Shown here: positions 8,302 through 48,279 of the stretch, piece by piece
Layout of the letters: the number at the start of each line of letters is the position of its first letter
Numbering within the stretch: the first letter of the stretch is position 1
IMG/VR virus record: IMGVR_UViG_3300023110_001595
Coordinates: 1-64,000 of that record
Reading direction: 5' to 3' (one strand)
DNA from: a virus
DNA: 64,000 bases
The notes under the pieces: generated by a model
The model's database searches: none
What the model saw: only the letters and a program-made list of their open reading frames with translations
Told to the model about the DNA's origin: nothing
Position numbers and translations under genes: made by a program

Positions 8302-8585
8302 CGAACAGAAACGACTACTGGGATAAGATACTCTCAGAAATTGATATGGATTACATTCCAATTGAGTATATGAATACAGTAGTCGTAAAATTTCATGATG
8401 GAAAAGAGTGGGAAATAGACCTAGCTAAACCAAAACAATCCGAATCAGACGTTGAAAAAATATTAGATGACTTTTTCAAAGAATACGAAGATAGTATAAA
8501 TACTGTTGATTTTAGATTAGACCTACATAAATTAAAAAATGATATTTCTAAAAGAACTGCACGTTTTTTAAAAGTAAACAGATGA
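8298..8585 (+). CDS. hypothetical protein
   Basis: 95-aa coupled ORF. Confidence 0.7.
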   Translation: MTNRNDYWDKILSEIDMDYIPIEYMNTVVVKFHDGKEWEIDLAKPKQSESDVEKILDDFFKEYEDSINTVDFRLDLHKLKNDISKRTARFLKVNR

Positions 8586-9142
8586 TTACAAATATTAATA
8601 TTAGTCTTGATTATAAAGAATTAGTCGATACTTATTATAAATTAGATATCGATAGTAAAATAAAAAATAATTACAATCTTAAACAATTAGCAGTGCAGTG
8701 TCGAAATGATGCTACACCAAAAGATCAATTGTCAGAAAGTTGTGGCAGCTTATATTATGATTGGCCTGCATATACTGGAAAAGGTGATATACCATTACGC
8801 AAACAAATATTTGAAGAAGATCAATTCAATACTGTATGTGATATCTTTCAAAATACAATTTTCGAAGAATTAATAGAAAAAATACAACAACAATACGATA
8901 TCATTAGAGGTCGTTTTATGTTATTACAACATAAAACTTGTTTAACATATCATAAAGACCCTAGCAAACGTATTCATATACCAATATATACAAACAACGA
9001 TTGTATGATGATTATAGACGATCAAGTCTATAGATTACCGTTTGGTGCAACATATTTGGTAGATACTACCGTTCCTCATACTGCACTAAATGCAAGTAAA
9101 GACCCTAGAGTGCATCTTGTATTTTGTTTAAATACTGCGTAA
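8582..9142 (+). CDS. 2OG-Fe(II) oxygenase, aspartyl/asparaginyl beta-hydroxylase-like
   Basis: Facial-triad pattern HKD...RIHIPI...HTALN...RVHLV. Confidence 0.8.
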   Translation: MITNINISLDYKELVDTYYKLDIDSKIKNNYNLKQLAVQCRNDATPKDQLSESCGSLYYDWPAYTGKGDIPLRKQIFEEDQFNTVCDIFQNTIFEELIEKIQQQYDIIRGRFMLLQHKTCLTYHKDPSKRIHIPIYTNNDCMMIIDDQVYRLPFGATYLVDTTVPHTALNASKDPRVHLVFCLNTA

Positions 9143-9145
9143 TAT

Positions 9146-9153
9146 GATAAATA
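9146..9153 (+). promoter_or_regulatory. putative late promoter GATAAATA
   Basis: Upstream of a virion fibre gene. Confidence 0.55.
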
Positions 9154-9184
9154 TATAAAACAGTACATTACCTAGGAGACTATA

Positions 9185-10291
9185 ATGGCTTTAAAGCTAA
9201 GACGCGGATTAAGTGCAAACCGTACAGATATTGTGCCTTCAGAAGGCGAATTAATCTATACAACAGATACCAAATTAATTTATGTAGGTGACGGAACCAC
9301 ACCAGGTGGTAACGTTGTAACCGCAAGTGGCGGAGGCGGTGGTAGCATTACTGGTATTACTGATAACACAACAGGTCCAGTATTGACTTTAAACAACACA
9401 AATATTCAAACAGGAGTTACTTTAGAATTAGGTGCAGATATTGATCTTAATCAATATGATATTACAGGAGAAGGTGATATTACTGTTACAGGTGATTTGA
9501 GTGTAACAGGTTTAGGGTCAGGTATAGTTTCAGCTAATGCAGTTAATACTTCTACATTGTCAGTAGCGCAAGGTATTACAGCAGATATTAAAGGTAGTGT
9601 TTTTGGTGATGACAGCAGTGTAATTGTAAGCGGTATAGATGGTAGTGTAATAGCAAGTTCTTTGACAACTGATGAAATATTTGTAGACGGTGTAACTTTA
9701 AATATAAATAATCCTACTTCATCTAATGCCCAAATTACTGCAAAGATAGCTAGTGATAATGATGTAAGCCTGGTAAATTTAGTTAGAGAGGCACAAACTG
9801 ATATCAGTGGTGACACGTTACCATATGGTAGAATTGCTTTTACTAGAGATGACAGTGTAGGTGAAGCTACTACATCATTTATTCAAGGCGGTAGAGATAC
9901 CATTGTTATTGCCTGTGATCCGAGTAGTACATTTAGTGCTCCATATAACTTGATATTCCAAAATGGTAGATTTGGCATAGGCGCCTTAACTCCTTCAGTA
10001 GAATTAGATGTTGTAGGTGATGCAAATATCTCAGGAACACTTACAGCAGGTGATGTTGTATCAAATGCAGCAGGCACACCTGCTATTACTTCAACAAGCG
10101 ATCTTACAATTACCGTAGCAGGCAGAGCCGAAATTACAGGTGGAACATTTAAATTAGCAAATTTAACAGATACAGAACGTGATGCAATTACTGCTGAAAA
10201 CGGAGATATGATTTATAACACGGATGATAATACAATACAAGCATATGTAAATGGTGCTTGGTATAGAATTGATACTTCTCCTATAGTATAA
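9185..10291 (+). CDS. virion fibre/structural protein
   Basis: N-terminal LKLRRG...EGELIYTTDTK..YVGDG fibre-attachment motif, G/T/S-rich body, C-terminal ERDAI..NGDMIYNTD..W. Confidence 0.75.
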   Translation: MALKLRRGLSANRTDIVPSEGELIYTTDTKLIYVGDGTTPGGNVVTASGGGGGSITGITDNTTGPVLTLNNTNIQTGVTLELGADIDLNQYDITGEGDITVTGDLSVTGLGSGIVSANAVNTSTLSVAQGITADIKGSVFGDDSSVIVSGIDGSVIASSLTTDEIFVDGVTLNINNPTSSNAQITAKIASDNDVSLVNLVREAQTDISGDTLPYGRIAFTRDDSVGEATTSFIQGGRDTIVIACDPSSTFSAPYNLIFQNGRFGIGALTPSVELDVVGDANISGTLTAGDVVSNAAGTPAITSTSDLTITVAGRAEITGGTFKLANLTDTERDAITAENGDMIYNTDDNTIQAYVNGAWYRIDTSPIV

Positions 10292-10300
10292 GGATTTAGA

Positions 10301-12694
10301 ATGACTGAAAAATATTATCAACTAGGTGCGAACAATGCATCAGATTTTGAAAGTCTACATTACTTGCTTTGCTCGGCAACAAATAGTATAGAAAATATAC
10401 CTAATAGAGAATGTACTTGTCACGATGATAAATTACATTCTCCTACAAGAGGCACATTTTTACTCACAGATGAAGAAGCAGCAGTATTAAAAAATGATGC
10501 AAGAGTAAAATTTATCAACATCGATTATGCACTATATCCAGATGATTATAAAGCACCACCAGATGAAATCCAAGCAACAAGTGCTGAATTACTCACAAGA
10601 TATACAGGTAATGTAAAAATTTATAGAGAACACGAAAACAGTGATACTCTTCCTGGTACACCCGATAGCACCGATTATAATCGAGGACCATGGAGTTTAA
10701 CACGTCATGCACAAAAATTAGATCCTTGGGTGGATGAAAGTAGAACAGACAATTATGTCTATTCAGCAAACCCTACACAATATGGCGACGGTGCTGATGT
10801 AGATGTGATAGTTGCAGATGACGGTGGCGGATGGATAGGACACCCTGAATTTCAAAACAACTGTACAGGTGGTAGTGCACCTGATGGTTATACAGGTGGA
10901 AACAAATTACCGGGTAATGGAACTTGTGATGTATTAGATATTGTCCTAGATGCACCATATTATTTAGATCCTGATTATTTTGATGCCGATGCTGGCAACC
11001 GTCTAGAAACACGTTGGGACGGCACAACTGTTCCTGTAGAAAGTTTTGCAAGAGGATGGTGGACAAGCACTGATAACCGAAGTGCAACATTCAATGCTGC
11101 ATATCCAAGTGCAGGTGTTATATCGTCAGTAAACAGCAGCTACACTAGGGCTTATTGTAATGGTAGTAACACTGCACAGAGTAGTGTAGGGCAGCATTGT
11201 ACGCCCTGTATGGCGCTTACATACGGTAGAACACAAGGGTGGGCATACAATGCTAATAAATGGGTATTAAACTTGTATGGTGGCAACGGATCTGACATTG
11301 AACAAGGTTTTGATATGCAGAAAATTTTTCATAACACAAAACCTGTAAATCCAAAATATGGAACACAAGATCCAACTGTAAGTTCAAACAGTTGGGGGTA
11401 TCGTTCAAGCAAAGGTACAACAGGCGGGTACTATCATTTCCGTACAGATGCTCCTGTTCAATACGGTGGTATAAGTGACGAACCTTTGTTCATTTCTCAT
11501 ATGGGTGTTACAGGGGATGCAGGACGCTGGAAGTCGGAAATGAAAACAAACTCTTACACAACTGCACTAGATGAATTAATCGACTCTGGTGTAATTTTTG
11601 TATGTGCAGCTGGCAACAGTAATCAAAAACAAGTAAACTGGGATCATCAAGATTTTGACAATTATGTAAGTGATATATCAACAAGAACAATTGAAGACTC
11701 ATCATATGATGAATTTGGTATCGAAGTTACAGGAACAACCAACAGACGAGGTTTTCCACAACAAGGTGGATTAACACTAGGCGAAGGTAGTACCTTTGCA
11801 TTCAATGCAACTGCACCTGGAGGCACTGCATACTATAGAATTGTAGGCACAGATAGAACAGGTGCTATCGATTACAATAACGGTCCAATTACAATGCGAG
11901 CCGGTGATACAATAGAACTTACAAACGATGCGGATTCAAGCCATACTATGTTTATTAAGACATCAGCAACTACAGGTGCAAGTGATCAAGTAACTGGTGC
12001 AACAGGGCAAGGTGCTCATAGTGGATCTACAATAACTTGGACACCTACAAGCACTGGAACATATTATTATAGATGCTTGAACCATGCAAGTATGGGTGGA
12101 GAAATTGTAGTTACAGCAAGAGAGCAAACATACAAAACTATAAACATCGGTGCTCTTGATGACGAGTATGCTACAGGCAACTTAGAACGCAAAGTAAACT
12201 ATAGCGACAGAGGCGAAGGCATAGATGCTTATTTTGCAGCAGATGGTATTTTAGCAGCAAATAAATCTTACACAAGTGAAGGAAGATATCCTGACACATA
12301 TCCTGGATTCACAGCTAACAGTGGTAGTGGTGCAGGAATTCCAGAAGACTGCGCCTTTAGTGGCACTAGTGCAGCCTGTCCTGTAGGTGCAGGATTTATT
12401 TCAACTCTTGTAGGACTAAATCGTAATTGGACATACACAGATGTAAAAAGTTATTTTGCAAATTTAGACGACCAAGATCCTAGCGATTTTTATATAGGCA
12501 CAGAATCAACAAGTGCCACCGATAGCAACTGGAGTGATTACAATAGTTTAGAAGGTGGACCAGCTAAGGTTGGGTATCAAAATGCTGCTGCTATTAACCA
12601 AACAACTTTCCCAAAAAGAAGTGCTACAATTACTAATTTAAATATTACTGGTTTAAATATTAGTAGAGTAAATAAATTTGACAGAGGCAGATAA
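10301..12694 (+). CDS. subtilisin-like (S8) serine protease with inserted cupredoxin-like domain
   Basis: Catalytic D (VIVADDG), H (QHCTPC), oxyanion N (AAGNS) and S (SGTSAACP). The insert carries YYYRCLNHASMGG. Confidence 0.8.
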   Translation: MTEKYYQLGANNASDFESLHYLLCSATNSIENIPNRECTCHDDKLHSPTRGTFLLTDEEAAVLKNDARVKFINIDYALYPDDYKAPPDEIQATSAELLTRYTGNVKIYREHENSDTLPGTPDSTDYNRGPWSLTRHAQKLDPWVDESRTDNYVYSANPTQYGDGADVDVIVADDGGGWIGHPEFQNNCTGGSAPDGYTGGNKLPGNGTCDVLDIVLDAPYYLDPDYFDADAGNRLETRWDGTTVPVESFARGWWTSTDNRSATFNAAYPSAGVISSVNSSYTRAYCNGSNTAQSSVGQHCTPCMALTYGRTQGWAYNANKWVLNLYGGNGSDIEQGFDMQKIFHNTKPVNPKYGTQDPTVSSNSWGYRSSKGTTGGYYHFRTDAPVQYGGISDEPLFISHMGVTGDAGRWKSEMKTNSYTTALDELIDSGVIFVCAAGNSNQKQVNWDHQDFDNYVSDISTRTIEDSSYDEFGIEVTGTTNRRGFPQQGGLTLGEGSTFAFNATAPGGTAYYRIVGTDRTGAIDYNNGPITMRAGDTIELTNDADSSHTMFIKTSATTGASDQVTGATGQGAHSGSTITWTPTSTGTYYYRCLNHASMGGEIVVTAREQTYKTINIGALDDEYATGNLERKVNYSDRGEGIDAYFAADGILAANKSYTSEGRYPDTYPGFTANSGSGAGIPEDCAFSGTSAACPVGAGFISTLVGLNRNWTYTDVKSYFANLDDQDPSDFYIGTESTSATDSNWSDYNSLEGGPAKVGYQNAAAINQTTFPKRSATITNLNITGLNISRVNKFDRGR

Positions 12695-12706
12695 GTATGC
12701 TATATT
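12678..12706 (+). promoter_or_regulatory. sigma70-type promoter TTGACA-17-TATATT with extended -10 TG
   Basis: Upstream of the desaturase operon. Confidence 0.7.
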
Positions 12707-12735
12707 AAATGTAGTACATTTGTATAGGACTATCA

Positions 12736-13455
12736 ATGAATATTAGATTCCAAATATTTGGATTACAAATTTTATCATATCTATCAATCATACCTATGAT
12801 TATTTTTGCAAGTTGGTGGCAATGGCTAATTGCTGTATTCTTGTACTTTGTGTTTAATGGATTAGGCATGATTATGACATATCATCGATTGTTAACACAC
12901 AGAAGTTTTACTTGTCCTAAATGGTTAGAATATATACTTGCTTTTGTTACAACTTTTAGTTTCACTGGTAGTGCCATTACTTGGATAGCAATACATAGAA
13001 AGCATCATAAATTTGCAGATACAGACAAAGATCCGCACAGTCCGGATCATTTAGGATTTTGGAGAGTGCAATTTTTTACTGCGTTTGCCGAAGTAGAAGG
13101 TAGATATGCTACAGATTTAATGCGTGATCGTTTTTACAAATGGCAGCACAAATATTACACAACAATTTGCTATGCAACAATTTTAGTATTTACATTTATA
13201 GATCCAATGTTGTTAATATACGGATTATTGTTTCCAGCAGCACTAACATTGTTTTTTGGAACCTTAGTATTAAGTTGGGCACACAAAGATTATAAACCTA
13301 GAACAGTTATTTGGTTGGCATTAATTACATTTGGTGATGCTTTCCACGATGTGCATCATGATTATCCTAACAAATATAGACTACATAAATATGACCTGAT
13401 TGGATGGATTATTGAAAAAGTATTCGTCAGAAATAAAACCACACCTGTGGTCTAA
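12736..13455 (+). CDS. membrane fatty-acid (delta-9-like) desaturase
   Basis: His boxes HRLLTH, HRKHH and HDVHH, a DPHSP motif and TM helices. Confidence 0.9.
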   Translation: MNIRFQIFGLQILSYLSIIPMIIFASWWQWLIAVFLYFVFNGLGMIMTYHRLLTHRSFTCPKWLEYILAFVTTFSFTGSAITWIAIHRKHHKFADTDKDPHSPDHLGFWRVQFFTAFAEVEGRYATDLMRDRFYKWQHKYYTTICYATILVFTFIDPMLLIYGLLFPAALTLFFGTLVLSWAHKDYKPRTVIWLALITFGDAFHDVHHDYPNKYRLHKYDLIGWIIEKVFVRNKTTPVV

Positions 13456-13494
13456 AGGATTAAATAAAGTTGGAGAAGTATATTGGAGGTTAAA

Positions 13495-14208
13495 ATGTCT
13501 ACAAGCTGGAAAGGACGCCACGAATTACCAGTCATTGCACGACTTGATTACAGATTTGACATCAAAAGACTCAAAGAAGAACTAAATCAGTTTGCAGCAG
13601 ATAAGATTTGGGACGGGCTAGGTAGCGATTATGCTCATATGTGTGAAACACATACAAAACTTCCAAAAATGTTTTTCAAAGAAGAAGAACTAGAGGAAGT
13701 TAATTGTGTTTGTGATTTAGATTGGAAAACGTCTAGTTATCAACAATTAAGTTTAACTGAGTTTGACGAATCGTATGATATTAGCCAACGCACAGAATTA
13801 AGTGGTAGTGCTTGGGATACAAGAGTAGCAAAACGTGATCCTAAAGCAGATGAACGCTGGTATAGAAAAGTTAAAGACGATGTGCCTTCGTATTTGCGTG
13901 AGGTTTTAGACACGTTTACAGGGTCGCACAGAACTCGATTTGCAAATTTAGCACCACATAGTGAAGTTAAGCCTCATATAGACTATGACACACTTTATGG
14001 AATAAGACTACACATTGCATTAGAAACTAATGATAAATGTTTTAATGGCGGGTGGGATAAAGATGGCAAAGAATATAAAGAGCACATTCCTGCTGATGGT
14101 AGTGTTTGGATGGTTAATCCTGGGGTCAAACATTATGCAGTAAACGGAGGCAATACTCCACGCAATCATTTAATAATAAGTTTAGATAGTCAAAAGGTTC
14201 TTATGTGA
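13495..14208 (+). CDS. 2OG-Fe(II) oxygenase, Asp/Asn beta-hydroxylase-like
   Basis: PHID...RLHIAL...HYAVN...RNHLI. ATG at 13495 follows GGAGG. Confidence 0.8.
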   Translation: MSTSWKGRHELPVIARLDYRFDIKRLKEELNQFAADKIWDGLGSDYAHMCETHTKLPKMFFKEEELEEVNCVCDLDWKTSSYQQLSLTEFDESYDISQRTELSGSAWDTRVAKRDPKADERWYRKVKDDVPSYLREVLDTFTGSHRTRFANLAPHSEVKPHIDYDTLYGIRLHIALETNDKCFNGGWDKDGKEYKEHIPADGSVWMVNPGVKHYAVNGGNTPRNHLIISLDSQKVLM

Positions 14209-14690
14209 AATACAAACATTATCATGTGATTGGTTTACAAAGAACTGGAACAAACTGGTTACACGCTACTGTAAAAGAAAACTTTGAGGTAACACGCAAA
14301 CAAACATTTTGGAAACATTTAACACCTTTGGGACAAAATCCTAATTATCACAATATACACGGACCTTTGGGTTCATTGCTAGAACTTGATCCAGATGTAT
14401 TTTACATAGTAACCTGTAAAAATTTTGATGCATGGTGTCAATCTATAAAAAAACGTAGAGTAGATTTTTGGATATCTCATAATTTTCCTAACAGTGAAGA
14501 AAAGAAAACAGAGGATATTTATTACGCTTGGGTCAAATGGAAAAATAATAATATAAACAAAAAAAATTTTTTCTATAAAAATTATGAAGATTGGAATAAA
14601 AATTGGAAAACATATTTTTCGGAAATAGAAAAAATTACAGGTTGGCAAAAGAAATATGATAATTATATTACAATAAATAAAAGGTTTTAA
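14205..14690 (+). CDS. sulfotransferase-like P-loop protein
   Basis: N-terminal GLQRTGTNW resembles a PAPS-binding loop, followed by a WKH motif. Confidence 0.5.
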   Translation: MKYKHYHVIGLQRTGTNWLHATVKENFEVTRKQTFWKHLTPLGQNPNYHNIHGPLGSLLELDPDVFYIVTCKNFDAWCQSIKKRRVDFWISHNFPNSEEKKTEDIYYAWVKWKNNNINKKNFFYKNYEDWNKNWKTYFSEIEKITGWQKKYDNYITINKRF

Positions 14691-14692
14691 TA

Positions 14693-15283
14693 ATGTATGT
14701 AAAAGAAATTAATAATCCTATAATTCACGAAGTATTTGAAGCAATTAAAGGTGTATGGAATCTTGTGCAAAATGACAATCGTTTTCAAGGTAAGTACAAA
14801 TATATGCATTATGCAGGATCTACAGAAGAAACTGTAGAAATTATTTACGATAAATTTCCTCTTTTACTTGATTTCAGAATGAAACTTGATTTAACGCCAG
14901 GTATTTTATTTTTATCTTATAATGATCCGTCAAAGCAACTTTATCAATGTGATCCCCATAACCATGATAAAGAAGGAAGTTTATTTTTTCCTGTTGTACA
15001 TAGTGAAGGAGCGGGCACAGCATTTTATAATCCTCCAGAAGATAAAATTTATGACGTAGATAGGATTGCTCCAGGTGGTATAGAATATACAATTCAACAT
15101 TGCAATTGGTTTGAACCTGCTGAAGTGCATAATATGTCAACACCTCATATTATGAATACAAAAATACTTCATGGAGCATATGAACTTATACCAGATTACC
15201 CCGATAATCATTATAGAGTAGCTTGTAATTGGCAGTCAAACATATCGTTTAACGAAATAGATAGAATTTTACATGATACCTAA
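14693..15283 (+). CDS. hypothetical protein, possible 2OG-Fe(II)/cupin fold
   Basis: PHNHD...LFFPV...GTAFY...ILHGA...R pattern. Confidence 0.45.
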   Translation: MYVKEINNPIIHEVFEAIKGVWNLVQNDNRFQGKYKYMHYAGSTEETVEIIYDKFPLLLDFRMKLDLTPGILFLSYNDPSKQLYQCDPHNHDKEGSLFFPVVHSEGAGTAFYNPPEDKIYDVDRIAPGGIEYTIQHCNWFEPAEVHNMSTPHIMNTKILHGAYELIPDYPDNHYRVACNWQSNISFNEIDRILHDT

Positions 15284-16070
15284 TGTTCTTCATAATGTCT
15301 GGATAGGTGAAAAAATACCTACTTTTAATTTTACATTAAGTTGGCGTGATGCTATGCCAAACTTTAGAATTATTAATTGGCGTGACGAAAACATCGAATC
15401 AGAATTTAAAAACGACAAAACTTATAGGTATTTAAAGAAACACTATGGTCCAACTATGATTTCAGATTATATTAGGTTATGTATTTTAAAAAAATATGGA
15501 GGAGTGTATGCAGATTTAGATGTTATGTTTTTAAAAGATATAAAAAATTTTTTGAATACTCCTGCTTTTTGCACCTATCAATTTCCGCATATACCGGAGA
15601 ACAAAAAACTAAAAAAAACACCAACAGGTTTGAGTTTGAGAGATTGCGTAAAGAACTTTGTAAATGTTTATAATTTTTACAATACAGACATATATCTTTG
15701 TAATAATTTAATAGGCAGTGAACCAGGCGGACAATTTATAAATGAAATGTTAGATGCTTTTTTAGAACAATTAGATTTGCCTGTAGATAAAAGATTTAGT
15801 TATGTAGATTATGGTAATGGACCTATGCTAACAACATATGTTGCAAAAAAATTCTGCGATGTTAATGGATATACCGAACATAGAGAACAGGTATCGATTT
15901 ATCAAAGCGATATATTTCATCCTACAAACTATATACAATATAAAGATGCAAACGTAAAAAGACAATTGAAAAACACATTAAAAGAACAAATTTTAAAAGC
16001 AAAACAATCAAATAGTTATGCATTGCATATCCAAGGATCAGAAGAAGTAGATTTATATCTAGAAGGTTAA
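15273..16070 (+). CDS. glycosyltransferase, GT32/DXD (mannosyltransferase-like)
   Basis: IPNVLHNVWIG, SDYIRL and GGVYADLDV. Confidence 0.85.
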   Translation: MIPNVLHNVWIGEKIPTFNFTLSWRDAMPNFRIINWRDENIESEFKNDKTYRYLKKHYGPTMISDYIRLCILKKYGGVYADLDVMFLKDIKNFLNTPAFCTYQFPHIPENKKLKKTPTGLSLRDCVKNFVNVYNFYNTDIYLCNNLIGSEPGGQFINEMLDAFLEQLDLPVDKRFSYVDYGNGPMLTTYVAKKFCDVNGYTEHREQVSIYQSDIFHPTNYIQYKDANVKRQLKNTLKEQILKAKQSNSYALHIQGSEEVDLYLEG

Positions 16071-16073
16071 AAA

Positions 16074-20685: not shown

Positions 20686-20690
20686 ATTTT

Positions 20691-20719: not shown

Positions 20720-20724
20720 TTAAA

Positions 20725-21363: not shown

Positions 21364-21370
21364 CACAAAC

Positions 21371-21389: not shown

Positions 21390-21392
21390 TGT

Positions 21393-40294: not shown

Positions 40295-40300
40295 ACAGTA

Positions 40301-40329
40301 ATTATATGAGATTTGTATTCTAATGTCAA
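40301..40329 (-). promoter_or_regulatory. consensus sigma70 promoter TTGACA-17-TATAAT, probably leaderless
   Basis: Only 6 nt separate the -10 box from the ATG at 40294. Confidence 0.75.
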
Positions 40330-40341
40330 TATTAGATTTTA

Positions 40342-40349
40342 GATAAATA
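40342..40349 (+). promoter_or_regulatory. putative late promoter GATAAATA
   Basis: Upstream of a fibre-like gene with a GGAGG RBS. Confidence 0.55.
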
Positions 40350-40366
40350 TTAGGACGGAGGACGTT

Positions 40367-41824
40367 ATGGCAGATTTTATACCAGGTGAAGCATATAGAT
40401 TAGATATCGTTGGAGCAGACGAATCAGTAATTGTAGATAGTTGGCAAGGACAAGTAAAAGCAGATGTTGTATCATCAAATGGATTGATACAAGTTGATGT
40501 TTCAACAGGTAAACTTTATGGACCAATGGTCGGTAATATAGAAGATACCGAAGGTAATGTAGTTTTCAATTTATCAGCACAAGTTTTAAAATCCGATCTA
40601 GAAGGTAGCGTGTATGATACAAGCGGTCAAATCAAACTTATCGACGGTATGACTGCTAGAGTTATAGCACCTGTTTATGGTAATGTTGTTGACAGCGAAG
40701 GTACAACTATTGTTGATACTGCAAATAAAACTATAACTGCAACTACGTTTACTGGCGATTTTTACGGAGATTTGCACGGTAACATTACAAGTGACAGTGT
40801 TATATATGGTACATTTAGCGGCGACTTCAACGGTAACGCTTACGGTGAGTTTTTTGGCGACTTAGTTGGAGAGCACACGGGCGATGTTATTGGAGATTTA
40901 ACTGGTAACGTTACCGGTAATGTAACAGGTAATGTAAATGGACATTTACTTGGTGCTAATTTGAATACAGCAGAAGGTGAACCTCCTGAAGTAAAAATAA
41001 CAAATTTAAACAACACAATCGAACATCCACAATATAGCTTTTACGGCGGCTTAGAACATCATATTGATCCTGATCCAGGTGCTGTTGCAAACGGTCCTAT
41101 TGTTTATCTAGGTGATACTAGAGCAGATACTGCACTACGTGCTCATGTACATCATTATAACGGACAAGAGATTATCAAGTTACATGATCCGGTTGATCCT
41201 ACCAGCGAAACAGCACCTGCTACTATTAGAGGACATTTTGATGGAAACTTTATATACAGTGACGTAAATGGTGCACAGGATGCATTAACTGTTAGTGAAC
41301 AAGGCACTGTGTTACACGCTGTAAACGGTGTTGTAACAATTGGTGGCTATATTACAGATGCAATAGATTGCGATATAAATATTTTCTCAGATGCAATCAC
41401 AGTGGAAACAAGTGCCGATGAAGAATTTTTAAATGTCAAAAACTACAATGGTACAGTAAATGCAAAAACTGCTATAGGAACAGATAATCCACTTGCAATT
41501 ATTTCAGGTGAAGGTTACAATGGAACAAACTTTGTAACTGGTGGCTTGTTTGGTATCTATGCAGATGCAGCACCAACTGATACTCATGTAGAAAGTAAAT
41601 TTGTTGTTAGCTTACCGAAAGGAAACGACAATCACAGTCAAACAAATCCAAGACGTTTGAGCTTTGACGGTGACGGTGTATTGACAGTGCCTGTATTTAA
41701 AGCAAGAGGCACTACTTTTGCAGACAGAGATTCAATGACAGCAGAAGCTGGCATGATTATTTTTAATCAAAATACAAATAAATTCCAAGGCTACACAGGT
41801 AGTTCTTGGGTTGACTTACACTAA
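40367..41824 (+). CDS. virion fibre-like structural protein with Gxxx repeats
   Basis: GDLTGNVTGNVTGNVNG tract. The C-terminus DRDSMTAEAGMIIFN..FQGY..W resembles that of 9185..10291. Confidence 0.7.
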   Translation: MADFIPGEAYRLDIVGADESVIVDSWQGQVKADVVSSNGLIQVDVSTGKLYGPMVGNIEDTEGNVVFNLSAQVLKSDLEGSVYDTSGQIKLIDGMTARVIAPVYGNVVDSEGTTIVDTANKTITATTFTGDFYGDLHGNITSDSVIYGTFSGDFNGNAYGEFFGDLVGEHTGDVIGDLTGNVTGNVTGNVNGHLLGANLNTAEGEPPEVKITNLNNTIEHPQYSFYGGLEHHIDPDPGAVANGPIVYLGDTRADTALRAHVHHYNGQEIIKLHDPVDPTSETAPATIRGHFDGNFIYSDVNGAQDALTVSEQGTVLHAVNGVVTIGGYITDAIDCDINIFSDAITVETSADEEFLNVKNYNGTVNAKTAIGTDNPLAIISGEGYNGTNFVTGGLFGIYADAAPTDTHVESKFVVSLPKGNDNHSQTNPRRLSFDGDGVLTVPVFKARGTTFADRDSMTAEAGMIIFNQNTNKFQGYTGSSWVDLH

Positions 41825-41838
41825 ATTTATGTTATAAT
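41811..41838 (+). promoter_or_regulatory. sigma70-type promoter TTGACT-16-TATAAT with extended -10 TG
   Basis: Upstream of the adenylation enzyme gene. Confidence 0.6.
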
Positions 41839-41868
41839 AAAAACTAAAGATTCGGAGGTGTTTTCAGA

Positions 41869-42858
41869 ATGATCTATATTGATGGAATAGAATATCTAGA
41901 AAGTGATAACGATCACGTAAGATCCGCAGTTATTAACTATCTTGAAAACTGGAATATTACAGTAACTACCAGCGGTACAACTGGTAATCCAAAAACATAT
42001 CAACACAGTGCAGAACTAATGCGCAAAGTTGCAGAATACAATGCAGAATATTTTATGCTTGATTCAAACAGTAGTATGATGGCATTATACAATCCTAGAG
42101 GCATTGGTTTTACAAGTATGAGTTTGTATCCTTGTCATGTTGCAAACTGTGATACATTTATTGAGACAACAGTTGCAAATCTACCAGATAGAATACGTGA
42201 AGTGCAGCCAACAAATATGTTGATACTTCCTAATGTTTGGAAAACTTGGCATAGACACAAAAAGTGGCAAAACTTGGATTTGAGCTGTATGAAGCAGATG
42301 CAAGTAGGCAGTGATATTACACCTACAGGACTTATGGAAGATTTGCGTTCAAAAGGTGCGCAACAGGTTAACACAGGTTACGGCAGCACAGAAGTACCTC
42401 CTATCATTATGAGTACAGAACGCCAAGACGTATATAAGTTAACCGATATTAATCCTAACATCGAATACAAGTTTGAGAAACACGATGATGGCACAACTGA
42501 GTTTTGTTGTAAGTACAAAAATCAAACAGAATGGTGGAACAGTGGCGACCTAGTAGAGTTTACAGACACAGATGAGTTTGCACTATCGGGACGTAGATTT
42601 AATGCATTCAAAATGGAAAACTGTGGTGACAGAGTTTATCCAGAACAAATCGAAAAAGTTGCTATTGAAAATGGTGCAAGTTTAGCACTATGTAGAAAAG
42701 TTGCACACGAATGTGTTGTGTATTACACAGGTGATTTGGATATTACTAAGTTTACAAAACAACATAAGTGCGCATACGAAATCACAGCAAAAAAAGTAGA
42801 CGAAATCAAAGTAGACGATAATCTGCGTAAGATTGATAGGACACAAGTTTTTGTATAG
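41869..42858 (+). CDS. compact AMP-binding (acyl-CoA ligase-like) adenylation enzyme
   Basis: TTSGTTGNPK, GYGSTE, SGD, GR and VYPEQIE. Confidence 0.85.
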   Translation: MIYIDGIEYLESDNDHVRSAVINYLENWNITVTTSGTTGNPKTYQHSAELMRKVAEYNAEYFMLDSNSSMMALYNPRGIGFTSMSLYPCHVANCDTFIETTVANLPDRIREVQPTNMLILPNVWKTWHRHKKWQNLDLSCMKQMQVGSDITPTGLMEDLRSKGAQQVNTGYGSTEVPPIIMSTERQDVYKLTDINPNIEYKFEKHDDGTTEFCCKYKNQTEWWNSGDLVEFTDTDEFALSGRRFNAFKMENCGDRVYPEQIEKVAIENGASLALCRKVAHECVVYYTGDLDITKFTKQHKCAYEITAKKVDEIKVDDNLRKIDRTQVFV

Positions 42859-43465
42859 ACTAGAAGTTTACGACGGTACACAGGATTTAGAAGATTGGTA
42901 CGAAGGTGCTGCTGCTAGAGGCTTTTACAACAACCATAACAAAACAGTGCTTATTGATTATATTGATAAGCACGAAGATGCTACACTAATACTTTTATAT
43001 TATAAAGACAGAGTAATAGGCACAACAATCACACACAGTTTGCGTCAACTAGGAATATTAGGTAAAGATGCACATCGTATTGCTGCACGTACAGCATTGC
43101 TTATTGAACGTGTGGATGACATACGTGGACACAAAGTACACAACAATGATCGCAGCCCAATGAATCATCACACAAGTCAAATGCTAACACCTGCTTGTTT
43201 TTATTACTTAGGGCTAGACAAGCCTATGTATGTAAGCACAAACAACTTAGAGACAGCAAGCCAACGTAAAGTGCATAGAACTTGGGCAAAGATTATGCAT
43301 AGACACAAATATCTTAAAGATCCTTTTGAACTAGAGTACAAAGGTGCATTTCAAACATTTTGGAAAGTAGATGTTGAACACTGGTTAAATGATTTGTCTA
43401 AAGTGCAATGGCCCGAATCAAAACAAGTGCTAGACGTATTTGCTGCACAACTCAAAAAAGTCTGA
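42833..43465 (+). CDS. hypothetical protein, possible GNAT-fold acyltransferase
   Basis: Coupled to the adenylation gene, with a loosely GNAT-like beta-strand pattern (LILLYYKDRVIGT..RIAART..YVSTN). Confidence 0.4.
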   Translation: MIGHKFLYRLEVYDGTQDLEDWYEGAAARGFYNNHNKTVLIDYIDKHEDATLILLYYKDRVIGTTITHSLRQLGILGKDAHRIAARTALLIERVDDIRGHKVHNNDRSPMNHHTSQMLTPACFYYLGLDKPMYVSTNNLETASQRKVHRTWAKIMHRHKYLKDPFELEYKGAFQTFWKVDVEHWLNDLSKVQWPESKQVLDVFAAQLKKV

Positions 43466-44803
43466 CATTTCTGGAAACACTTGTTTGTGATCAACTCCAC
43501 GTCTGCGTCCTTGTTCTTTAAAGAAGTTGTGGAAATCTCTACGTCCTTGTATAACTTTTTCTAACGGATATTCTGTTGTATCCATGTAATCAACAACACG
43601 TCTAAACTTTTCATATTCTATAGTGCTAAATGCATCTTTGCGATTGTCATCTACATTTTCTTTTATAAACTGCAAATGGTCACGCATATAAGTCATATAG
43701 TTGTTTGGCAGTATATTAATATCATATTGTAGAGGCTCTTTAAGATGTGGTGTATCAAAACCCAAACGTTGCCATCTGTGTGTTTCTACATCATTATACT
43801 TGGCACGCCATTCTAATATTTTTTCTAGTAGTGTGCGGAATGTTGTTACACTGAATATGTTAAACGTAATCATCAACACCATAGGTGCTTCACAGTTACG
43901 CATAAAATAATCCAAGTTGCGTTCAAAAACTTCGATGTCTAATCCGTCACGTATGTATTCTGCACGTTTACCCCAAGTGTCAATACTTGTAAACATTTTA
44001 AAGCGTCTAATCTTGTTGTTTGTTAACAGGTCATTTACACGGTTTGTAAACTTTTCTAACTGCTTTGGTTTGCCACCTAAGTTGCTGTTACAGTTTAATT
44101 CAAGTTCTGGCTTAGGGTCTGCGTCCAACATATCAAACAGTTTATATGTGCTTTTTTGTATTGTAGGCTCACCACCTGTAATACGCAATATGTGTAACTC
44201 TTTACTTAATTCTGGCCACCAGCGCCAAAATGCATCTAAATACGGATTGTTTTCTTCTTCAAATATTTGAAACCAATCAATGTCGCATCTATGGTTTTTT
44301 ACGTTTGTATATGGGCCATGTTGTTTGATTTCTTGATAATATCTACTGCTGGCTTTTGGATGACAGTATCCACAACGGAAGTTACACTCATTACCAAAAC
44401 TAACTTCTAAGTATTCTGGATTTACATCAAACTCTGCACCACCTTCTTTTACAGCGTTTAGTCTATGTTTAAAGAAGATAGTTTGATTACGCTGTTTTCT
44501 ATCACTTACGTAATCTTTGCCAAGTGCTTCAATCTTCCAACAATAGTTACAACCAGTAGGTTGTTCGCCACGCATCATTGCAGCACGTTCTTGCTTCTTT
44601 TGCGCTGTGTTGTGTATTGCACTTGGATTTTCTAACAACGGTGCTGTGTCAATCTTATGAGGAGCAGGATGATAACAACTGTGTGTTTCACCTGTTTGGA
44701 AATATATATTGGCATGATACCATTTAGCAAAACAAAACGTTGGTGATATTTCTTGTGTTATACCATCAATGCGTTTAATTTCTTCGCTTTCGCTACGCTC
44801 CAT
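43430..44803 (-). CDS. N-terminal twitch-domain radical SAM
   Basis: FCFAKW..SCYH..CNYC followed by CNFRCGYC and GGEPT. Confidence 0.9.
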   Translation of the reverse strand: MERSESEEIKRIDGITQEISPTFCFAKWYHANIYFQTGETHSCYHPAPHKIDTAPLLENPSAIHNTAQKKQERAAMMRGEQPTGCNYCWKIEALGKDYVSDRKQRNQTIFFKHRLNAVKEGGAEFDVNPEYLEVSFGNECNFRCGYCHPKASSRYYQEIKQHGPYTNVKNHRCDIDWFQIFEEENNPYLDAFWRWWPELSKELHILRITGGEPTIQKSTYKLFDMLDADPKPELELNCNSNLGGKPKQLEKFTNRVNDLLTNNKIRRFKMFTSIDTWGKRAEYIRDGLDIEVFERNLDYFMRNCEAPMVLMITFNIFSVTTFRTLLEKILEWRAKYNDVETHRWQRLGFDTPHLKEPLQYDINILPNNYMTYMRDHLQFIKENVDDNRKDAFSTIEYEKFRRVVDYMDTTEYPLEKVIQGRRDFHNFFKEQGRRRGVDHKQVFPEMSDFFELCSKYV

Positions 44804-45732
44804 TATTGTTCTCTATCTAAAAATTTTCTACTGTTGTCTCTTACAGGATTTTGGTATACATTTTTAAAGAACATACTTTGTTGTGCGTTTAAAGGATCTT
44901 CAGCAATGGGTATATTTAATTCTTCAATTAATTTTTCGCCTAAATAATTAGTATCCAATTCCATGCTTTCTTCATCAAATTCACCTTTTTGATCCCAATA
45001 TTCATTAAGCCATTCAAAATCACGTACATTAACATAATCCCAATCTGTACACATAGTTTTGTACAAACCTTCTCTAGCACCGTATATAGCCCAACGTCCG
45101 TTTTCAACGTCTGCACCTACCATTAACCAAATATACAATCGGTGTAAGTTTTTCCAGTGATTACGTTTAAATCCTTCATAGTCAGGACGAACACCTTGAT
45201 CTAATGCCATTTTAACGCCTTCACGGAAACCAGCACGCCACGCCTGATGAGGTGTAGCATTGTTATATATCATACTATATGTTCCGTTCATTTGTACATA
45301 TTCAGTATCCCAACAAAAATCTACCTGTGCGTGTGGATTATCTTTTGGAGCATTTTCGTGTGTGCGCATATTTAAAACATGACTCTTAGGCCAACATTTA
45401 ATTCCGCCGTTTCCATACGCTAATCCGTTGATTATATTTTCAGCAGTCCAACTAATAACCTTATTAGTTAAATCAGTATCTTCATCAAAGTTTATAACCT
45501 GTGACAAAAAATCATCTCTAATTCTATTATCACCATCTACGGTAATAAATCTATCTGTTGTAGATTTTTCAGCAGCAGCTTTGTGTGCGCTATCACTACC
45601 TTTTACACCATGTACTCGTTCGGCCCAAGGAACCTTACTACATAAGTCTGCAAAATTTTGTTCTGCATTTGGTTCGTCATATGACAAGTATATAATATCG
45701 TAATCAACAACTCTGAATGTGCTAGGCATCAA
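44803..45732 (-). CDS. glycosyltransferase-like protein (paralog of 39260..40294)
   Basis: SYDEPNA, GVKGSDSAH, TVDGD, YGNGGIK and GFREG. Confidence 0.6.
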   Translation of the reverse strand: MMPSTFRVVDYDIIYLSYDEPNAEQNFADLCSKVPWAERVHGVKGSDSAHKAAAEKSTTDRFITVDGDNRIRDDFLSQVINFDEDTDLTNKVISWTAENIINGLAYGNGGIKCWPKSHVLNMRTHENAPKDNPHAQVDFCWDTEYVQMNGTYSMIYNNATPHQAWRAGFREGVKMALDQGVRPDYEGFKRNHWKNLHRLYIWLMVGADVENGRWAIYGAREGLYKTMCTDWDYVNVRDFEWLNEYWDQKGEFDEESMELDTNYLGEKLIEELNIPIAEDPLNAQQSMFFKNVYQNPVRDNSRKFLDREQ

Positions 45733-46270
45733 CTTCCTCTAGATAGTAAGAATCAAATCTACGTGTAGTATACACAGAAAACGGTGTTCCGTCAAATTCA
45801 AAATCTTCTGAAAATGGCACAAAATTTCCATCTGTAAATTTTATAAGTCTATATAATACATTTGGATCATTCTTTTTTGTAATGCTAAAATAATACTTTG
45901 AAAGATCTATGTTAATATTTTGATCTAACAATTCTGATTCAAATTTATCATCTAACATTATATGCCAACTTTTGTTTTTATTATTTTTAGTTAGAATTAC
46001 TTGTTTCTCTTTCGGAATAGCAGTGGGTATTTCATATAGAAAACTCCACATTAATTTATCCTCGTCTATTTGCTTTGTATTTTTTATACTGTATTTTTTC
46101 TCGATAAAATCAAATTCTACTTTGTGTTCAAGAAGACTTAATTTTCCTGTAATAAAATCTTCAACTTCTTCTATATCAACTTCTAAAAATTGAAATCTTT
46201 TGTCAGGCTGGTTGCTTATTTTGTAAATTGTTCCATCGTCTTCAAAACATACAAATCTTTTTACATTCAT
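45722..46270 (-). CDS. hypothetical protein
   Basis: 182-aa coupled ORF. Confidence 0.65.
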   Translation of the reverse strand: MNVKRFVCFEDDGTIYKISNQPDKRFQFLEVDIEEVEDFITGKLSLLEHKVEFDFIEKKYSIKNTKQIDEDKLMWSFLYEIPTAIPKEKQVILTKNNKNKSWHIMLDDKFESELLDQNINIDLSKYYFSITKKNDPNVLYRLIKFTDGNFVPFSEDFEFDGTPFSVYTTRRFDSYYLEEVDA

Positions 46271-47118
46271 ATTCCTAAGACCTTTTCATATTTTTTAATT
46301 ATGTCATTAGTAACAAAATCTTTTTCGGTGTAATGAAAGATTCCATTTTGTTGATAATTTCCAATTTTCAATTTTAGATCGTCGTCTAAATATACACCTA
46401 CTCTGTCTTGCCATCTAACTGAAAAATTATCGTTCCAATTTTGACATTTTGGTTTCATATGCACAAAACTAGGATATTCACTTTTATTATTTGTAATCAA
46501 ATGCGTATTATCTAGTAATAAACTTGCTATAGATGCTGTTAAATCCATACTTGGATTGTTTAAATGTTTTAGCTTGTTATTTACTGTTTTATAAATTGAT
46601 TGCCAATTATTTGTTATTAATTCAAGCCAGTCATTAAACTCGTGTGCTAAATCTGATTTTTTAAAATAATGAAAACCACTGTATAAACTTGGAATATTGT
46701 TTAGGTAAAAATGGTTGTATCTATAATAGTTTTTATCAGGAATCACTTCTCCTCTATATGTTGTAACTTTGCTAGTATAAAATAAATCGTAATTTTCTAA
46801 ATAATCAAACCAAAAAGAAATGTCATCTAATACCAGCATATCTGTATCTATCACTGCTGTGTTTTCATATGGTATAGCGTGATAAATTTTCCATCTATTA
46901 CTAACTTTCCAATCTTCGTTTTCAGCGTGATCGCCCCAAGGAATTTCCACTATATGATCAAACACCTGCTTGTATTTTCGTGGCACTGGATCATTTGTAA
47001 TTAAGCATACACTGCTATTTTCATTTGTAACTTTAATACTCATTGCAGCTAAGTATGCTTGACGCACGTAGTCAAAATTACTGTTTTGGGCAAGCATAGT
47101 AAAATTATTGGTTGTCAA
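46267..47118 (-). CDS. GT8-like (GT-A) glycosyltransferase
   Basis: AAMSIK, PYENTAVIDTD (DxD), SGFHYFKKS and H.KP. Confidence 0.65.
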   Translation of the reverse strand: MTTNNFTMLAQNSNFDYVRQAYLAAMSIKVTNENSSVCLITNDPVPRKYKQVFDHIVEIPWGDHAENEDWKVSNRWKIYHAIPYENTAVIDTDMLVLDDISFWFDYLENYDLFYTSKVTTYRGEVIPDKNYYRYNHFYLNNIPSLYSGFHYFKKSDLAHEFNDWLELITNNWQSIYKTVNNKLKHLNNPSMDLTASIASLLLDNTHLITNNKSEYPSFVHMKPKCQNWNDNFSVRWQDRVGVYLDDDLKLKIGNYQQNGIFHYTEKDFVTNDIIKKYEKVLGI

Positions 47119-47935
47119 TTATTCTCTCCAAGCTAAACTTATTCATTATATGACAATTACTGCCTTTGAGATTTACTGCTGTATACTCACCAAAACGATT
47201 TGTTTTTTGTACAAGAATTTTTATTTCATCTTCAACTATATCAAGTAAAACATCTTTGTCAATAGCATAAAATTTCTTGCCTGGAAGTATACCCGCAAAG
47301 TCACCAGATTTGTATCCATTCATTATGTGTAGCGCAATGCTAAAAGCAAAATCATTTCTATATACAGTTGTACGGAATTGATACATACTTCTATAATGCA
47401 TATAATTTTCTTTAATATGCTTTACTAAATCAAAAAACATTTTTGTTTGTTCTGATTTTTTAAAATAAAATACAGTAGCCCAATAAAAATCTATGCTGGT
47501 ATCACTAATACGTAAAAATTCAGATGTTCCTGTGTGTATACCTACGTGGATTGCATCCTTGTAAAGTAACAATTCCTTCTGTTGTAAAAAGCAATTATTT
47601 AAAATATCATTACTAATAACGTAATCAGTATCCATTACAATTGTTTCATCATAAGGAGTAAGGTAATATACGTCTGCCCTATCGGTATTTAGAAAAGATG
47701 TTATCTTATTATATAAGTCACCGTCGTGATGTCTTTTTGTCGTATTATGATAATTTTTGCTAGTCGATTGAATTACAGTATCAAACAAATTATTACTATT
47801 ATCATAGTCAGAGGTTGTAACAAGACTGACTGGTAAGTTCAAATACTTTTGTATTCTTTTTGCTAAAAATTCAGCTTGTTTTATATAGTTTAGTGTACCG
47901 TTGTTGTTAGCAAATAACAAGACGCCTTTTGTCAT
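47105..47935 (-). CDS. GT8-like (GT-A) glycosyltransferase
   Basis: PYDETIVMDTD (DxD), WATVFYFKKS and RNDFAFS. Confidence 0.65.
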   Translation of the reverse strand: MTKGVLLFANNNGTLNYIKQAEFLAKRIQKYLNLPVSLVTTSDYDNSNNLFDTVIQSTSKNYHNTTKRHHDGDLYNKITSFLNTDRADVYYLTPYDETIVMDTDYVISNDILNNCFLQQKELLLYKDAIHVGIHTGTSEFLRISDTSIDFYWATVFYFKKSEQTKMFFDLVKHIKENYMHYRSMYQFRTTVYRNDFAFSIALHIMNGYKSGDFAGILPGKKFYAIDKDVLLDIVEDEIKILVQKTNRFGEYTAVNLKGSNCHIMNKFSLERIIDNQ

Positions 47936-48279
47936 AAATTTATAATACTTTCAACAGTTCTGTTTTTTTTCAATTTGTTATATTCAACAAAATATTGGTT
48001 AGTTGCTTCAAAATATTTTGTGTATAATTCAGCACTAAAATTTGCAACATTATCTACTTCAATCGGTATACTGTTATCATCAATCAAGATTGTTCCATCC
48101 TGTTCTAAAGTTACTAAACTTTGACAAAAACTTATAAGTTCTTGTGTAACTGTAAATTGTCCACCGTTATAGTAGTATACTAAATTTTCTTTATATTGCT
48201 CTCTTAACAAACGTTTTTGATTGTTTAGAGTAACCATATAGTTACTGTGGTCTAATGCTTTTTGAAGACGTTCGTCCAT
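47932..48279 (-). CDS. hypothetical phage protein
   Basis: 115-aa ORF with AGGAGG RBS. Confidence 0.75.
   Translation of the reverse strand: MDERLQKALDHSNYMVTLNNQKRLLREQYKENLVYYYNGGQFTVTQELISFCQSLVTLEQDGTILIDDNSIPIEVDNVANFSAELYTKYFEATNQYFVEYNKLKKNRTVESIINL

Follow-up and report, generated by a model that had tools for sequence, protein, structure and literature searches.

Organization of the island

A 64,000-nucleotide stretch of viral DNA (IMG/VR record IMGVR_UViG_3300023110_001595; hereafter the window) makes up the first 64 kb of a 75,782-bp viral contig with a G+C content of about 33%. Within it, beside tail-fibre genes, lies an island of about 40 kb (8582-48279) with 11 genes for radical S-adenosylmethionine (SAM) enzymes, four for PP-loop ATPases, two for desaturases, five for supported glycosyltransferases (GTs), and genes for an adenylating enzyme, a subtilase and two fibre-like proteins (Table 1; genes are designated by their leftmost coordinate). 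By sequence comparison, the source is an uncultured marine jumbo phage and a distant relative of PA5oct. CheckV places the completeness of the contig at 21%, which corresponds to a full length of about 350 kb. The giant virion protein encoded to the right of the island and the AAA ATPase encoded at 4613 have their best matches in jumbo phages of the PA5oct group (32% and 50% identity, respectively). Seawater, marine and many salt-marsh metagenomes contain near-identical DNA; 16 runs other than the source share 0.61-0.96 of sampled words with it. A megablast search with 24 kb of the island gave no match among cultured phages.

The island is tightly packed. No intergenic gap exceeds 72 bp and overlaps between genes are frequent, in agreement with a first-pass annotation of this DNA that had described tightly coupled operons enclosing two fibre genes and a subtilase; the enclosed genes are themselves borne out by Mtd_N, Peptidase_S8 and fibre-like sequence evidence. 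The same annotation had the cluster wedged among virion genes. This is correct for the right side, where fibre paralogs and the giant protein are found, but not for the left, where the flanking genes encode an exonuclease, the AAA ATPase, a von Willebrand factor A (vWA)-like protein and the products of 7612 and 8298. The genes from 47932 to 43430 form an operon on the same strand as the fibre genes and lie behind them at a distance of 51 bp (the fibre-proximal operon); a long minus-strand operon is headed by 39260. Prediction of transmembrane segments identifies the two desaturases as the only membrane proteins of the island. Among its 41 open reading frames (ORFs) there is no Pfam match to a flippase, polymerase, initiating phosphoglycosyl transferase or exporter, and thus no family by which a Wzx/Wzy- or ABC-type surface polysaccharide locus would be recognized. 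Three salt-marsh metatranscriptome libraries contain contigs that align to island genes without a mismatch. These contigs provide a weak hint of expression, as DNA carry-over is possible and the contigs hold no information on strand or level; parts of the island that they leave uncovered are no evidence of silence.

Radical SAM and PP-loop enzymes

Both Pfam and a six-frame search covering the whole contig yield exactly 11 radical SAM genes, the number given in the first-pass annotation, and the CxxxCxxC cluster-binding motif is present once in each of the 11 proteins. Eight of them exceed the PF04055 gathering cut-off of 29.5 bits; the remaining three (24444, 34027 and 43430) score 24.7-26.2 bits, yet are paralogs of above-cut-off members. 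The proteins fall into a group of five N_Twi enzymes, three of SPASM/twitch type (24444, 34027 and 35094), a pair (19573 and 25473) and a single B12-binding enzyme (18025), for which all NCBIfam matches lie far under their cut-offs. Assignment to the N_Twi group is based on NCBIfam NF033640 (N_Twi_rSAM), whose curated whole-protein cut-off is 170 bits. The scores are 373.7 for 26609, 239.7 for 27922, 187.8 for 30421, 422.9 for 32584 and 298.4 for 43430. In these proteins a Cys-rich twitch-like domain is located N-terminal to the core, such that the motifs C..PW...CC and GC..C precede CxxxCxxC (alignments A1 and A3).

In the four PP-loop paralogs (20725, 23089, 29598 and 31746) the motif SGGADS is invariant, and each has a QueC-type C-terminal Zn-binding Cys cluster, consistent with their earlier description as four QueC-like ATPases. 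Pfam QueC scores are 22.3 bits for 20725 (cut-off 22) and 15.8 bits for 23089, while 29598 and 31746 are without a QueC match; a search of the PDB with the profile of this family (A2) returned nothing significant.

Glycosyltransferases and core proteins

Where about six GT-like genes had been predicted, five are supported by Pfam, PDB profile searches, hhalign or structural modelling (15273, 39260, 44803, 46267 and 47105) and a sixth is not. Three of the predicted GTs have no Pfam match; their support comes instead from the PDB profile, hhalign and the fold of an AlphaFold2 (AF2) model. The profile of the 46267 family (A5) matches glycogenin-1 in the PDB with an E value of 1.5e-8 over positions 1-105, with an invariant DTD, and 47105 is a paralog of 46267 (hhalign, 99.6%); neither of these GT8-like genes has a Pfam GT8 match at E <=5. 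In the family formed by 44803 and 39260, residues D66 and D68 of the DxD motif are invariant (alignment A4). All top Foldseek matches of the 44803 model are GT-A enzymes, a fold that nucleotidyltransferases share, the best being the peptide/protein glycosyltransferases SunS, ThuS and PBCV-1 A64R (E about 2e-4). VIA-align 2 gave Z scores of 10.6-8.6 over residues 3-165 and ranks the neighbours differently, placing SunS, ThuS and A64R among many GT-A matches. PDB profile searches with the GT-A family (A4), 47105 (A6) and 38233 (A7) yielded nothing significant.

Two further genes belong to the core of the island. The methyltransferase of the first-pass annotation corresponds to 38233, for which there is an Atlas lead to Methyltransf_31 but no match at the family threshold. 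The N-terminal half of this protein consists of four to five tandem helical repeats of about 25 residues (consensus EDLRKAVLEQNLHSLFRL), a repeat without a family. The adjoining gene, 38022, encodes a 74-aa protein that is uniformly conserved (83% column identity in alignment A8). Its AF2 model (pLDDT 80) is a three-helix bundle followed by a conserved disordered C-terminal tail and gave no fold match, including none to a PqqD/RRE-like fold. The 74-aa protein may be a partner or an acceptor.

Conservation among related phages

Relatives of 32584 are encoded on at least 206 viral contigs, the best 80 at 82-96% identity. Gene order in the core was compared across 80 loci and four long relatives (G001, G002, G003 and G005). 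The contigs of G001, G002 and G003 extend over both flanks, and in each of them the island is bordered on the left and on the right as in the window, the common right flank comprising the fibre paralogs, 55962 and the giant protein; G005 has the right flank and the core as in the window, and its contig stops before the left flank. Island size in the long relatives ranges from about 38 to 61 kb. The genes that are kept are those of the fibre-proximal operon (47932, 47105, 46267, 45722, 44803 and 43430), the core 39260, 38233, 38022 and 35094 followed by 32584, and the terminal gene 19573. The exception to the core order is G001, where the 34027 homolog comes after the homologs of 32584 and 31746. 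Between 32584 and 19573, whole cassettes of PP-loop and radical SAM genes vary from one relative to another, and the number of radical SAM genes per relative ranges from 9 to 19. Independent scattering of the genes in relatives, for which the first-pass annotation had proposed to look, was not seen; the position of the island and the order of its core are kept. Within its island, and with N_Twi genes on either side, G001 has a gene for a nucleoside diphosphate (NDP)-sugar epimerase/dehydratase (1.3e-39) and one for a DegT aminotransferase. The existence, conservation and wide occurrence of the island are established; its function we infer.

The segment 40367-43465 is missing from several relatives (Table 1), and some metagenome contigs join the GT-A paralogs on either side of it. 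In the interval 39598-45599, low-depth contigs from a seawater metagenome fuse 39260 with 44803 and skip 4.9-6.0 kb. Such contigs fit population variants or relatives that, like G003, are without the module of fibre, adenylation and radical SAM genes.

Relatives outside the clade

The N_Twi family is very large, with 8068 clusters at 50% identity (E <=0.001). Cellular genomes were scanned with a degenerate DNA pattern for CNLKCRMC, which samples part of the family only; many metagenome-assembled genomes (MAGs) of Bdellovibrionota were recovered. Five Bdellovibrionota genomes have 8-37 N_Twi matches each, many of them in tandem arrays on megabase contigs, and none of 14 control genomes reached the NF033640 cut-off. 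The phage enzyme mix is repeated on one Bdellovibrionales contig, which encodes N_Twi, PP-loop, B12 and SPASM types as well as 25473-like enzymes. A chromosomal N_Twi array in Bdellovibrionales adjoins genes for UDP-Glc/GDP-Man dehydrogenase, a GT2 enzyme and an AsnB-type amidotransferase; a second array is near phosphomannomutase and short-chain dehydrogenase/reductase (SDR) genes. Two polytopic membrane proteins encoded beside a Bdellovibrionales array have no relative in the PDB. The 1.9-Mb chromosome of one Bdellovibrionales MAG (G008) carries two tandem arrays of 8-9 N_Twi genes at C1:792852-803016 and 1068646-1092743 (loci L201-L204). A full-text literature search found no paper joining radical SAM, Bdellovibrio and glycan, and the N_Twi expansion in Bdellovibrionota appears to be undescribed.

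Among cultured phages, Ralstonia phage RsoM2USA (343.8 kb, MG752970) carries a colinear minimal cassette, ORF346-354, directly behind fibre-like genes and the giant protein ORF361. The order of the cassette is a 47932-like gene, two GT8 genes, a small ORF, a GT-A gene, an N_Twi radical SAM gene, a second GT-A gene and a 38233-like gene. The first of these GT-A proteins shows 45% identity, and the N_Twi protein ORF349 is 35% identical to 43430 (E 3e-91). ORF361 was identified as a virion protein by mass spectrometry, while the cassette genes were annotated as hypothetical and not studied, and radical SAM is not mentioned (PMC8504454). KVP40-like vibriophages have 2-3 distant N_Twi genes located among nucleotide-metabolism genes, a setting that proved of no help on function.

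Other features of the island and its flanks

Table 1. Genes and modules of the island and its right flank, in window coordinates.
Position	Strand	Feature	Basis or remark
8582-9142	+	Asp/Asn beta-hydroxylase-like (cupin) enzyme, first island gene	Pfam Asp_Arg_Hydrox, E 4.2e-12, above cut-off
9185-10291	+	Fibre-like protein with Mtd_N N-terminus; C-terminal motif in common with 40367	Pfam Mtd_N, 2.8e-11; blastp
10301-12694	+	Subtilase (S8) with inserted cupredoxin-like domain	Pfam Peptidase_S8 1.4e-6 and Copper-bind 4.3e-5, above cut-off
12736-13455	+	Membrane fatty-acid-desaturase-like enzyme	Pfam FA_desaturase, His boxes, transmembrane segments
13483-14208	+	Second Asp/Asn hydroxylase-like enzyme	Pfam Asp_Arg_Hydrox, above cut-off
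14205-15283	+	Two ORFs of 161 and 196 aa, the first with a sub-threshold sulfotransferase match	Pfam
15273-16070	+	GT32 with DXD	Pfam Gly_transf_sug, 6.4e-15
16074-16835	+	Second desaturase	Pfam FA_desaturase, 7.5e-16
16832-18028	+	398-aa ORF, no family match; C-terminal hydroxylase-like HxD...H motif	Motif
18025-19578	+	B12-binding radical SAM enzyme, probable methyltransferase class	Pfam B12-binding and Radical_SAM
19573-20685	-	Radical SAM enzyme, conserved end-marker of the array	Pfam; 72-94% identity in relatives
20725-21372	-	QueC-like PP-loop ATPase, paralog 1	Pfam, blastp, motif alignment
21393-22334	+	ORF with nitroreductase match only	E 0.043, sub-threshold
22323-23120	-	ORF without supported family	ORF call
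23089-23739	-	QueC-like PP-loop paralog 2	Motif alignment
up to 24454	-	240-aa ORF with GDSL match only	E 0.13, sub-threshold
24444-25472	-	Radical SAM/SPASM enzyme	Pfam, paralogy, NCBIfam
25473-26609	-	Radical SAM enzyme, paralog of 19573	Pfam, paralogy
26609-29094	-	Two N_Twi radical SAM enzymes (26609, 27922), twitch domain before catalytic core	NF033640
from 29060	-	184-aa ORF with SDR match only; 79% median identity in 35 loci	E 0.017, sub-threshold
within 29060-30428	-	QueC-like PP-loop paralog 3 (29598)	Motif alignment
30421-31776	-	N_Twi radical SAM enzyme	NF033640
31746-32705	-	QueC-like PP-loop paralog 4	Motif alignment
32584-33984	-	Most conserved N_Twi radical SAM enzyme	NF033640
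34027-36173	-	Two paralogous SPASM/twitch-type radical SAM enzymes (34027, 35094), conserved core	Pfam, paralogy, NCBIfam
36166-36912	-	DUF6473 protein	Pfam DUF6473, 1.2e-7; variable in relatives
up to 38029	-	379-aa ORF	Variable in relatives
38022-38246	-	74-aa protein	Alignment A8, AF2
38233-39303	-	Core protein: N-terminal ~25-aa helical repeats, C-terminal Rossmann/methyltransferase-like domain	Alignment A7
39260-40294	-	GT-A-fold glycosyltransferase, paralog of 44803	blastp 7e-30; invariant DxD in A4; model of paralog
40367-43465	+	Facultative module (fibre-like, AMP-binding and 210-aa ORFs)	Absent in G003, L039, L052, L064
40367-41824	+	Fibre-like protein	Sequence; C-terminal motif in common with 9185
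41869-42858	+	Short AMP-binding adenylating enzyme	Pfam
up to 43465	+	210-aa ORF with FeeM match only	E 0.033, sub-threshold
43430-44803	-	N_Twi radical SAM enzyme, last gene of fibre-proximal operon	NF033640
44803-45732	-	GT-A-fold glycosyltransferase	AF2 (pLDDT 84.6), Foldseek, VIA
up to 46270	-	182-aa ORF, no family (45722)	ORF call
46267-47935	-	Two paralogous GT8/glycogenin-like glycosyltransferases (46267, 47105)	PDB profile, hhalign
47932-48279	-	115-aa ORF, first gene of fibre-proximal operon	Kept in relatives and RsoM2USA
48331-64000	-	Right flank, outside the island: fibre-like paralogs, conserved 200-aa protein, giant virion protein	PHROG tail-fibre and virion matches

The left third of the island encodes the two predicted desaturases, each of which carries three His boxes. 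Three or four 2-oxoglutarate-Fe(II) oxygenases had been expected; the products of 8582 and 13483 score above the cut-off, whereas 16832 has only a similar C-terminal motif. The subtilase encoded at 10301 has a plastocyanin/azurin-like Copper-bind domain (residues 520-604) between its catalytic residues, and relatives have only partial homologs of it. The adenylation enzyme of the first-pass annotation is recognizable by its AMP-binding match. Other assignments were not confirmed: its three SGNH-like proteins (the best match being to GDSL), its SDR, its nitroreductase and its sulfotransferase/GNAT-like genes (sulfotransferase E 0.033) all stay under the family thresholds.

Inside the fibre-like gene 40367, positions 40745-40945 are occupied by a tract of short-period Gly-rich repeats. 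In several runs, contigs of DNA and of RNA are interrupted at 40904-40942; the length of the repeat may therefore vary between strains.

On the left, the interval 4613-7109 pairs the MoxR/CobS-like AAA ATPase (PHROG 1297, 1e-100) with a vWA-type protein (PHROG 1314), and this pair adjoins the island in all relatives. On the right, three fibre-like proteins of 520, 619 and 683 aa are encoded in a row at 50455-55962; their first ~180-330 residues are shared (30-36% identity) and their C-termini diverge. The trio resembles a collection of alternative receptor-binding fibres that share an anchor. The giant virion protein is a single ORF of 4602 aa that begins at 56591 and extends past the end of the window to contig base 70399. 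It has 49-64% identity in close relatives and only patchy similarity (22-32% identity) to structural proteins of PA5oct, Rak2-type phages and RsoM2USA.

Interpretation

We would give an even chance to the view that the region as a whole is a glycan building and editing island of the tail-fibre region, conserved in the clade and variable in its cassettes, and probably acting on a cytoplasmic acceptor, for example a virion protein. Taken by themselves, the right two-thirds are most likely a glycan-building and glycan-editing island, whose substrate, reactions and acceptor we infer. Soluble GTs (two GT8/glycogenin-like, two GT-A and one GT32) would attach a sugar chain, made from host nucleotide sugars, to a cytoplasmic acceptor, the likeliest candidate being a protein of the virion, for instance a fibre. 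Editing of the sugars by C-H chemistry (such as methylation, epimerisation or deoxygenation) would fall to the eleven radical SAM enzymes, the four QueC-like PP-loop ATPases would activate carboxylates for conversion to amides, and the methyltransferase-like protein, the hydroxylases and the adenylating enzyme could attach further groups. Gain and loss of cassettes between related phages would make the product diverse, in the manner of bacterial O-antigen loci.

The glycan reading is the best supported because five GTs are present, because the epimerase and DegT genes of G001 lie between N_Twi genes and because the bacterial arrays stand beside sugar genes. The fixed position and conserved core order in relatives and the RsoM2USA cassette behind its giant virion protein also speak for it. 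A cytoplasmic acceptor, most simply a virion protein, is favoured over an exported polysaccharide by several points taken together: the GTs are soluble, no flippase, polymerase or initiating transferase accompanies them, the operon is contiguous with the fibre genes, peptide/protein GTs are the best Foldseek matches and the GT8 match is to glycogenin, a self-glucosylating protein. Of the glycan or glycolipid assembly line proposed in the first-pass annotation, the glycan part is retained; a single line of 40 kb finds less support, with the left third poorly conserved and the segment 40367-43465 facultative.

Several points weigh against this interpretation. Neither the product nor the acceptor nor the reactions have been observed. 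The window contains no supported gene for nucleotide-sugar synthesis, and about 15 ORFs of the island are without a family. To our knowledge, the N_Twi family has been named but has no characterised member; its nearest solved relatives by sequence are the peptide maturases CteB and anSME, a resemblance of a generic kind. For the GT-A matches, TM-scores are low (about 0.3), though VIA Z reaches about 10 across the N-terminal domain. The sugar-gene context in bacteria is taken from one genome only. Finally, the left third (8582-19578) is poorly conserved, has distant paralogs only in relatives and, with its desaturases and LpxO-type hydroxylases, looks lipid- or protein-directed.

This last point invites the thought that independent modules have gathered at an insertion-tolerant site: a lipid-remodelling operon acting on the host membrane (desaturases, LpxO/OlsC-type hydroxylases, GT32 and the B12 radical SAM enzyme), a radical SAM/PP-loop module and a fibre-linked GT module. 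As an account of the entire island this is unlikely, if worth serious attention. It would explain why genes of the left third are replaced in relatives by paralogs of 25-50% identity and partial coverage, why 40367-43465 is facultative and why the desaturases are the sole membrane proteins; furthermore, the host recognition clusters of pelagimyophages have been described as mixed hypervariable islands (PMC7029224). Nonetheless, these enzyme families co-occur again in relatives and on one Bdellovibrionales contig, genes overlap or nearly abut across the module boundaries, one relative (L019) has desaturase and hydroxylase homologs directly after 19573, and for the right two-thirds the proposal overlaps with the glycan-editing interpretation. 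Limited to the left third, independent pathways are plausible, and 8582-19578 may be a separate lipid- or protein-hydroxylating module.

It is somewhat less probable again that the island is a pathway akin to those of ribosomally synthesized and post-translationally modified peptides, in which SPASM/twitch and B12 radical SAM enzymes, hydroxylases, PP-loop ligases and the subtilase would modify the 74-aa protein or a fibre protein by cross-linking, C-methylation, hydroxylation and cleavage, and the GTs would add a final sugar only. Peptide maturases are indeed the best NCBIfam and PDB neighbours of several of the radical SAM enzymes, but their NCBIfam matches all lie far under the curated cut-offs and none reaches a maturase equivalog cut-off (83.8 versus 281.85 bits, for example). 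The conserved 74-aa ORF, with its disordered tail, is located directly upstream of two SPASM-type genes; against this reading, it is the only small ORF and is uniformly conserved, with no variable core, its model is all-helical, and the RsoM2USA cassette does not have it. Protein hydroxylases are known within the Asp/Asn hydroxylase family, the island encodes an S8 protease and the best Foldseek matches of the GT-A model are glycocin peptide glycosyltransferases, whereas the Pfam scans revealed no RRE domain, the bacterial arrays are found beside sugar genes and such genes are also interspersed in the G001 island. More doubtful than either of these alternatives is an elaboration in which a glycan or glycopeptide, heavily edited by radical SAM enzymes, is carried by a dedicated phage protein (the 74-aa protein or the fibres) and would constitute a kind of product not seen before. 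Here the SunS-like GT-A and glycogenin-like GT8 enzymes would prime that protein, pairs of N_Twi and QueC-like enzymes would add C-C or amide modifications to the sugars, and cassette shuffling would generate a lineage-specific "glyco-code" for host recognition or evasion.

A role in 7-deazaguanine-type chemistry, with the QueC-like and radical SAM enzymes supplying modified deazapurines destined for DNA or a protein conjugate, seems very improbable. The PP-loop paralogs do have the QueC-type PP-loop and Zn-Cys layout, GTP cyclohydrolase I (FolE) is encoded 5-15 kb to the left of the island in three of five relatives and G001 has a PTPS/QueD gene. However, no canonical QueC above the cut-off and no QueE equivalog were found, the PTPS gene, present in that one relative of the five, lies about 80 kb away from the island, and the PP-loop copy number varies between relatives, unlike that of a core DNA-modification pathway. 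None of FolE, QueD, QueE and TGT/DpdA is encoded inside the island. TGT/DpdA is also missing from all five relatives, one of them 246 kb long, with the proviso that these records are fragments and absence from them is no proof; the hypermodified base offered as an alternative in the first-pass annotation accordingly loses ground. The GTP cyclohydrolase I genes map at G002:C1:15330-15860, G003:C1:83827-84351 and G001:C1:223716-224246; in the window phage the equivalent position falls before the start of the contig.

Comparison with known systems

Likeness of the PP-loop paralogs to the QueC (7-cyano-7-deazaguanine synthase) family consists in the SGGxDS motif and the C-terminal four-Cys site. 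They differ from that family in scoring at or below its cut-off and in forming four divergent copies interleaved with N_Twi genes, and the island differs from the QueC pathway in having no QueD, QueE or TGT partners. The GT-A enzymes share with PBCV-1 A64R and SunS/ThuS a GT-A fold with DxD, used there in protein or peptide glycosylation; identity to 44803 is 7-18%, which supports the fold only, and those systems are without radical SAM arrays.

Large sets of radical SAM genes are on record in other phages. For Campylobacter phages CP220 and CPt10 the count is 11-12 proteins (PMC2853527); for a T4-like viral genome of marine origin, mentioned in passing, it is 12 genes (PMC5332604). They resemble the island in having about a dozen radical SAM genes, part of them in an interchangeable module. 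The relationship to the Campylobacter phages is distant: 19573 shows a weak match to phage CP21 (22% identity, E 8e-6), no N_Twi match to these phages was found at 1e-5 and, as far as PMC2853527 reports, the context is not one of fibre-linked GT genes. RsoM2USA has the GT cassette with a single radical SAM gene in it but no PP-loop genes, no large array and no 74-aa protein.

A close parallel by description is provided by the host recognition clusters of pelagimyophages and cyanomyophages, in which fibres, GTs rich in GT8 and radical SAM cassettes are located beside a giant structural protein (PMC7029224). As in the window, a hypervariable island of about 35-45 kb lies by the giant protein and fibre genes, and close genomes differ by radical SAM cassettes. 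Modification of the host O-chain was proposed in that case and the radical SAM genes were not analysed (PMC7029224); indeed, none of PMC7029224, PMC5332604 and PMC2853527 assigns a function to the radical SAM arrays. Pelagimyophages and cyanomyophages are T4-like phages of about 150-250 kb, whereas the backbone of the window is nearest to jumbo phages of the PA5oct/XacN1 type and RsoM2USA and is not of the Straboviridae type.

Phage radical SAM arrays, noted since 2010 and left unexplained, are here tied to a conserved GT cassette beside the fibre genes of a marine phage clade represented by at least 206 viral contigs, and the island connects them to the very large N_Twi family, expanded in Bdellovibrionales to about 20 copies per genome. 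Should the glycan-editing interpretation be correct, the island would point to a new sugar-editing radical chemistry and to a variable, phage-made glycan at the interface of host recognition, a question rendered directly testable by the minimal cassette of the cultured phage RsoM2USA. The island is a variant of phage host-recognition/glycan islands already known as a kind; what sets the window apart is that four QueC-like paralogs, a desaturase/hydroxylase module and two fibre genes embedded in the island accompany the cassette.

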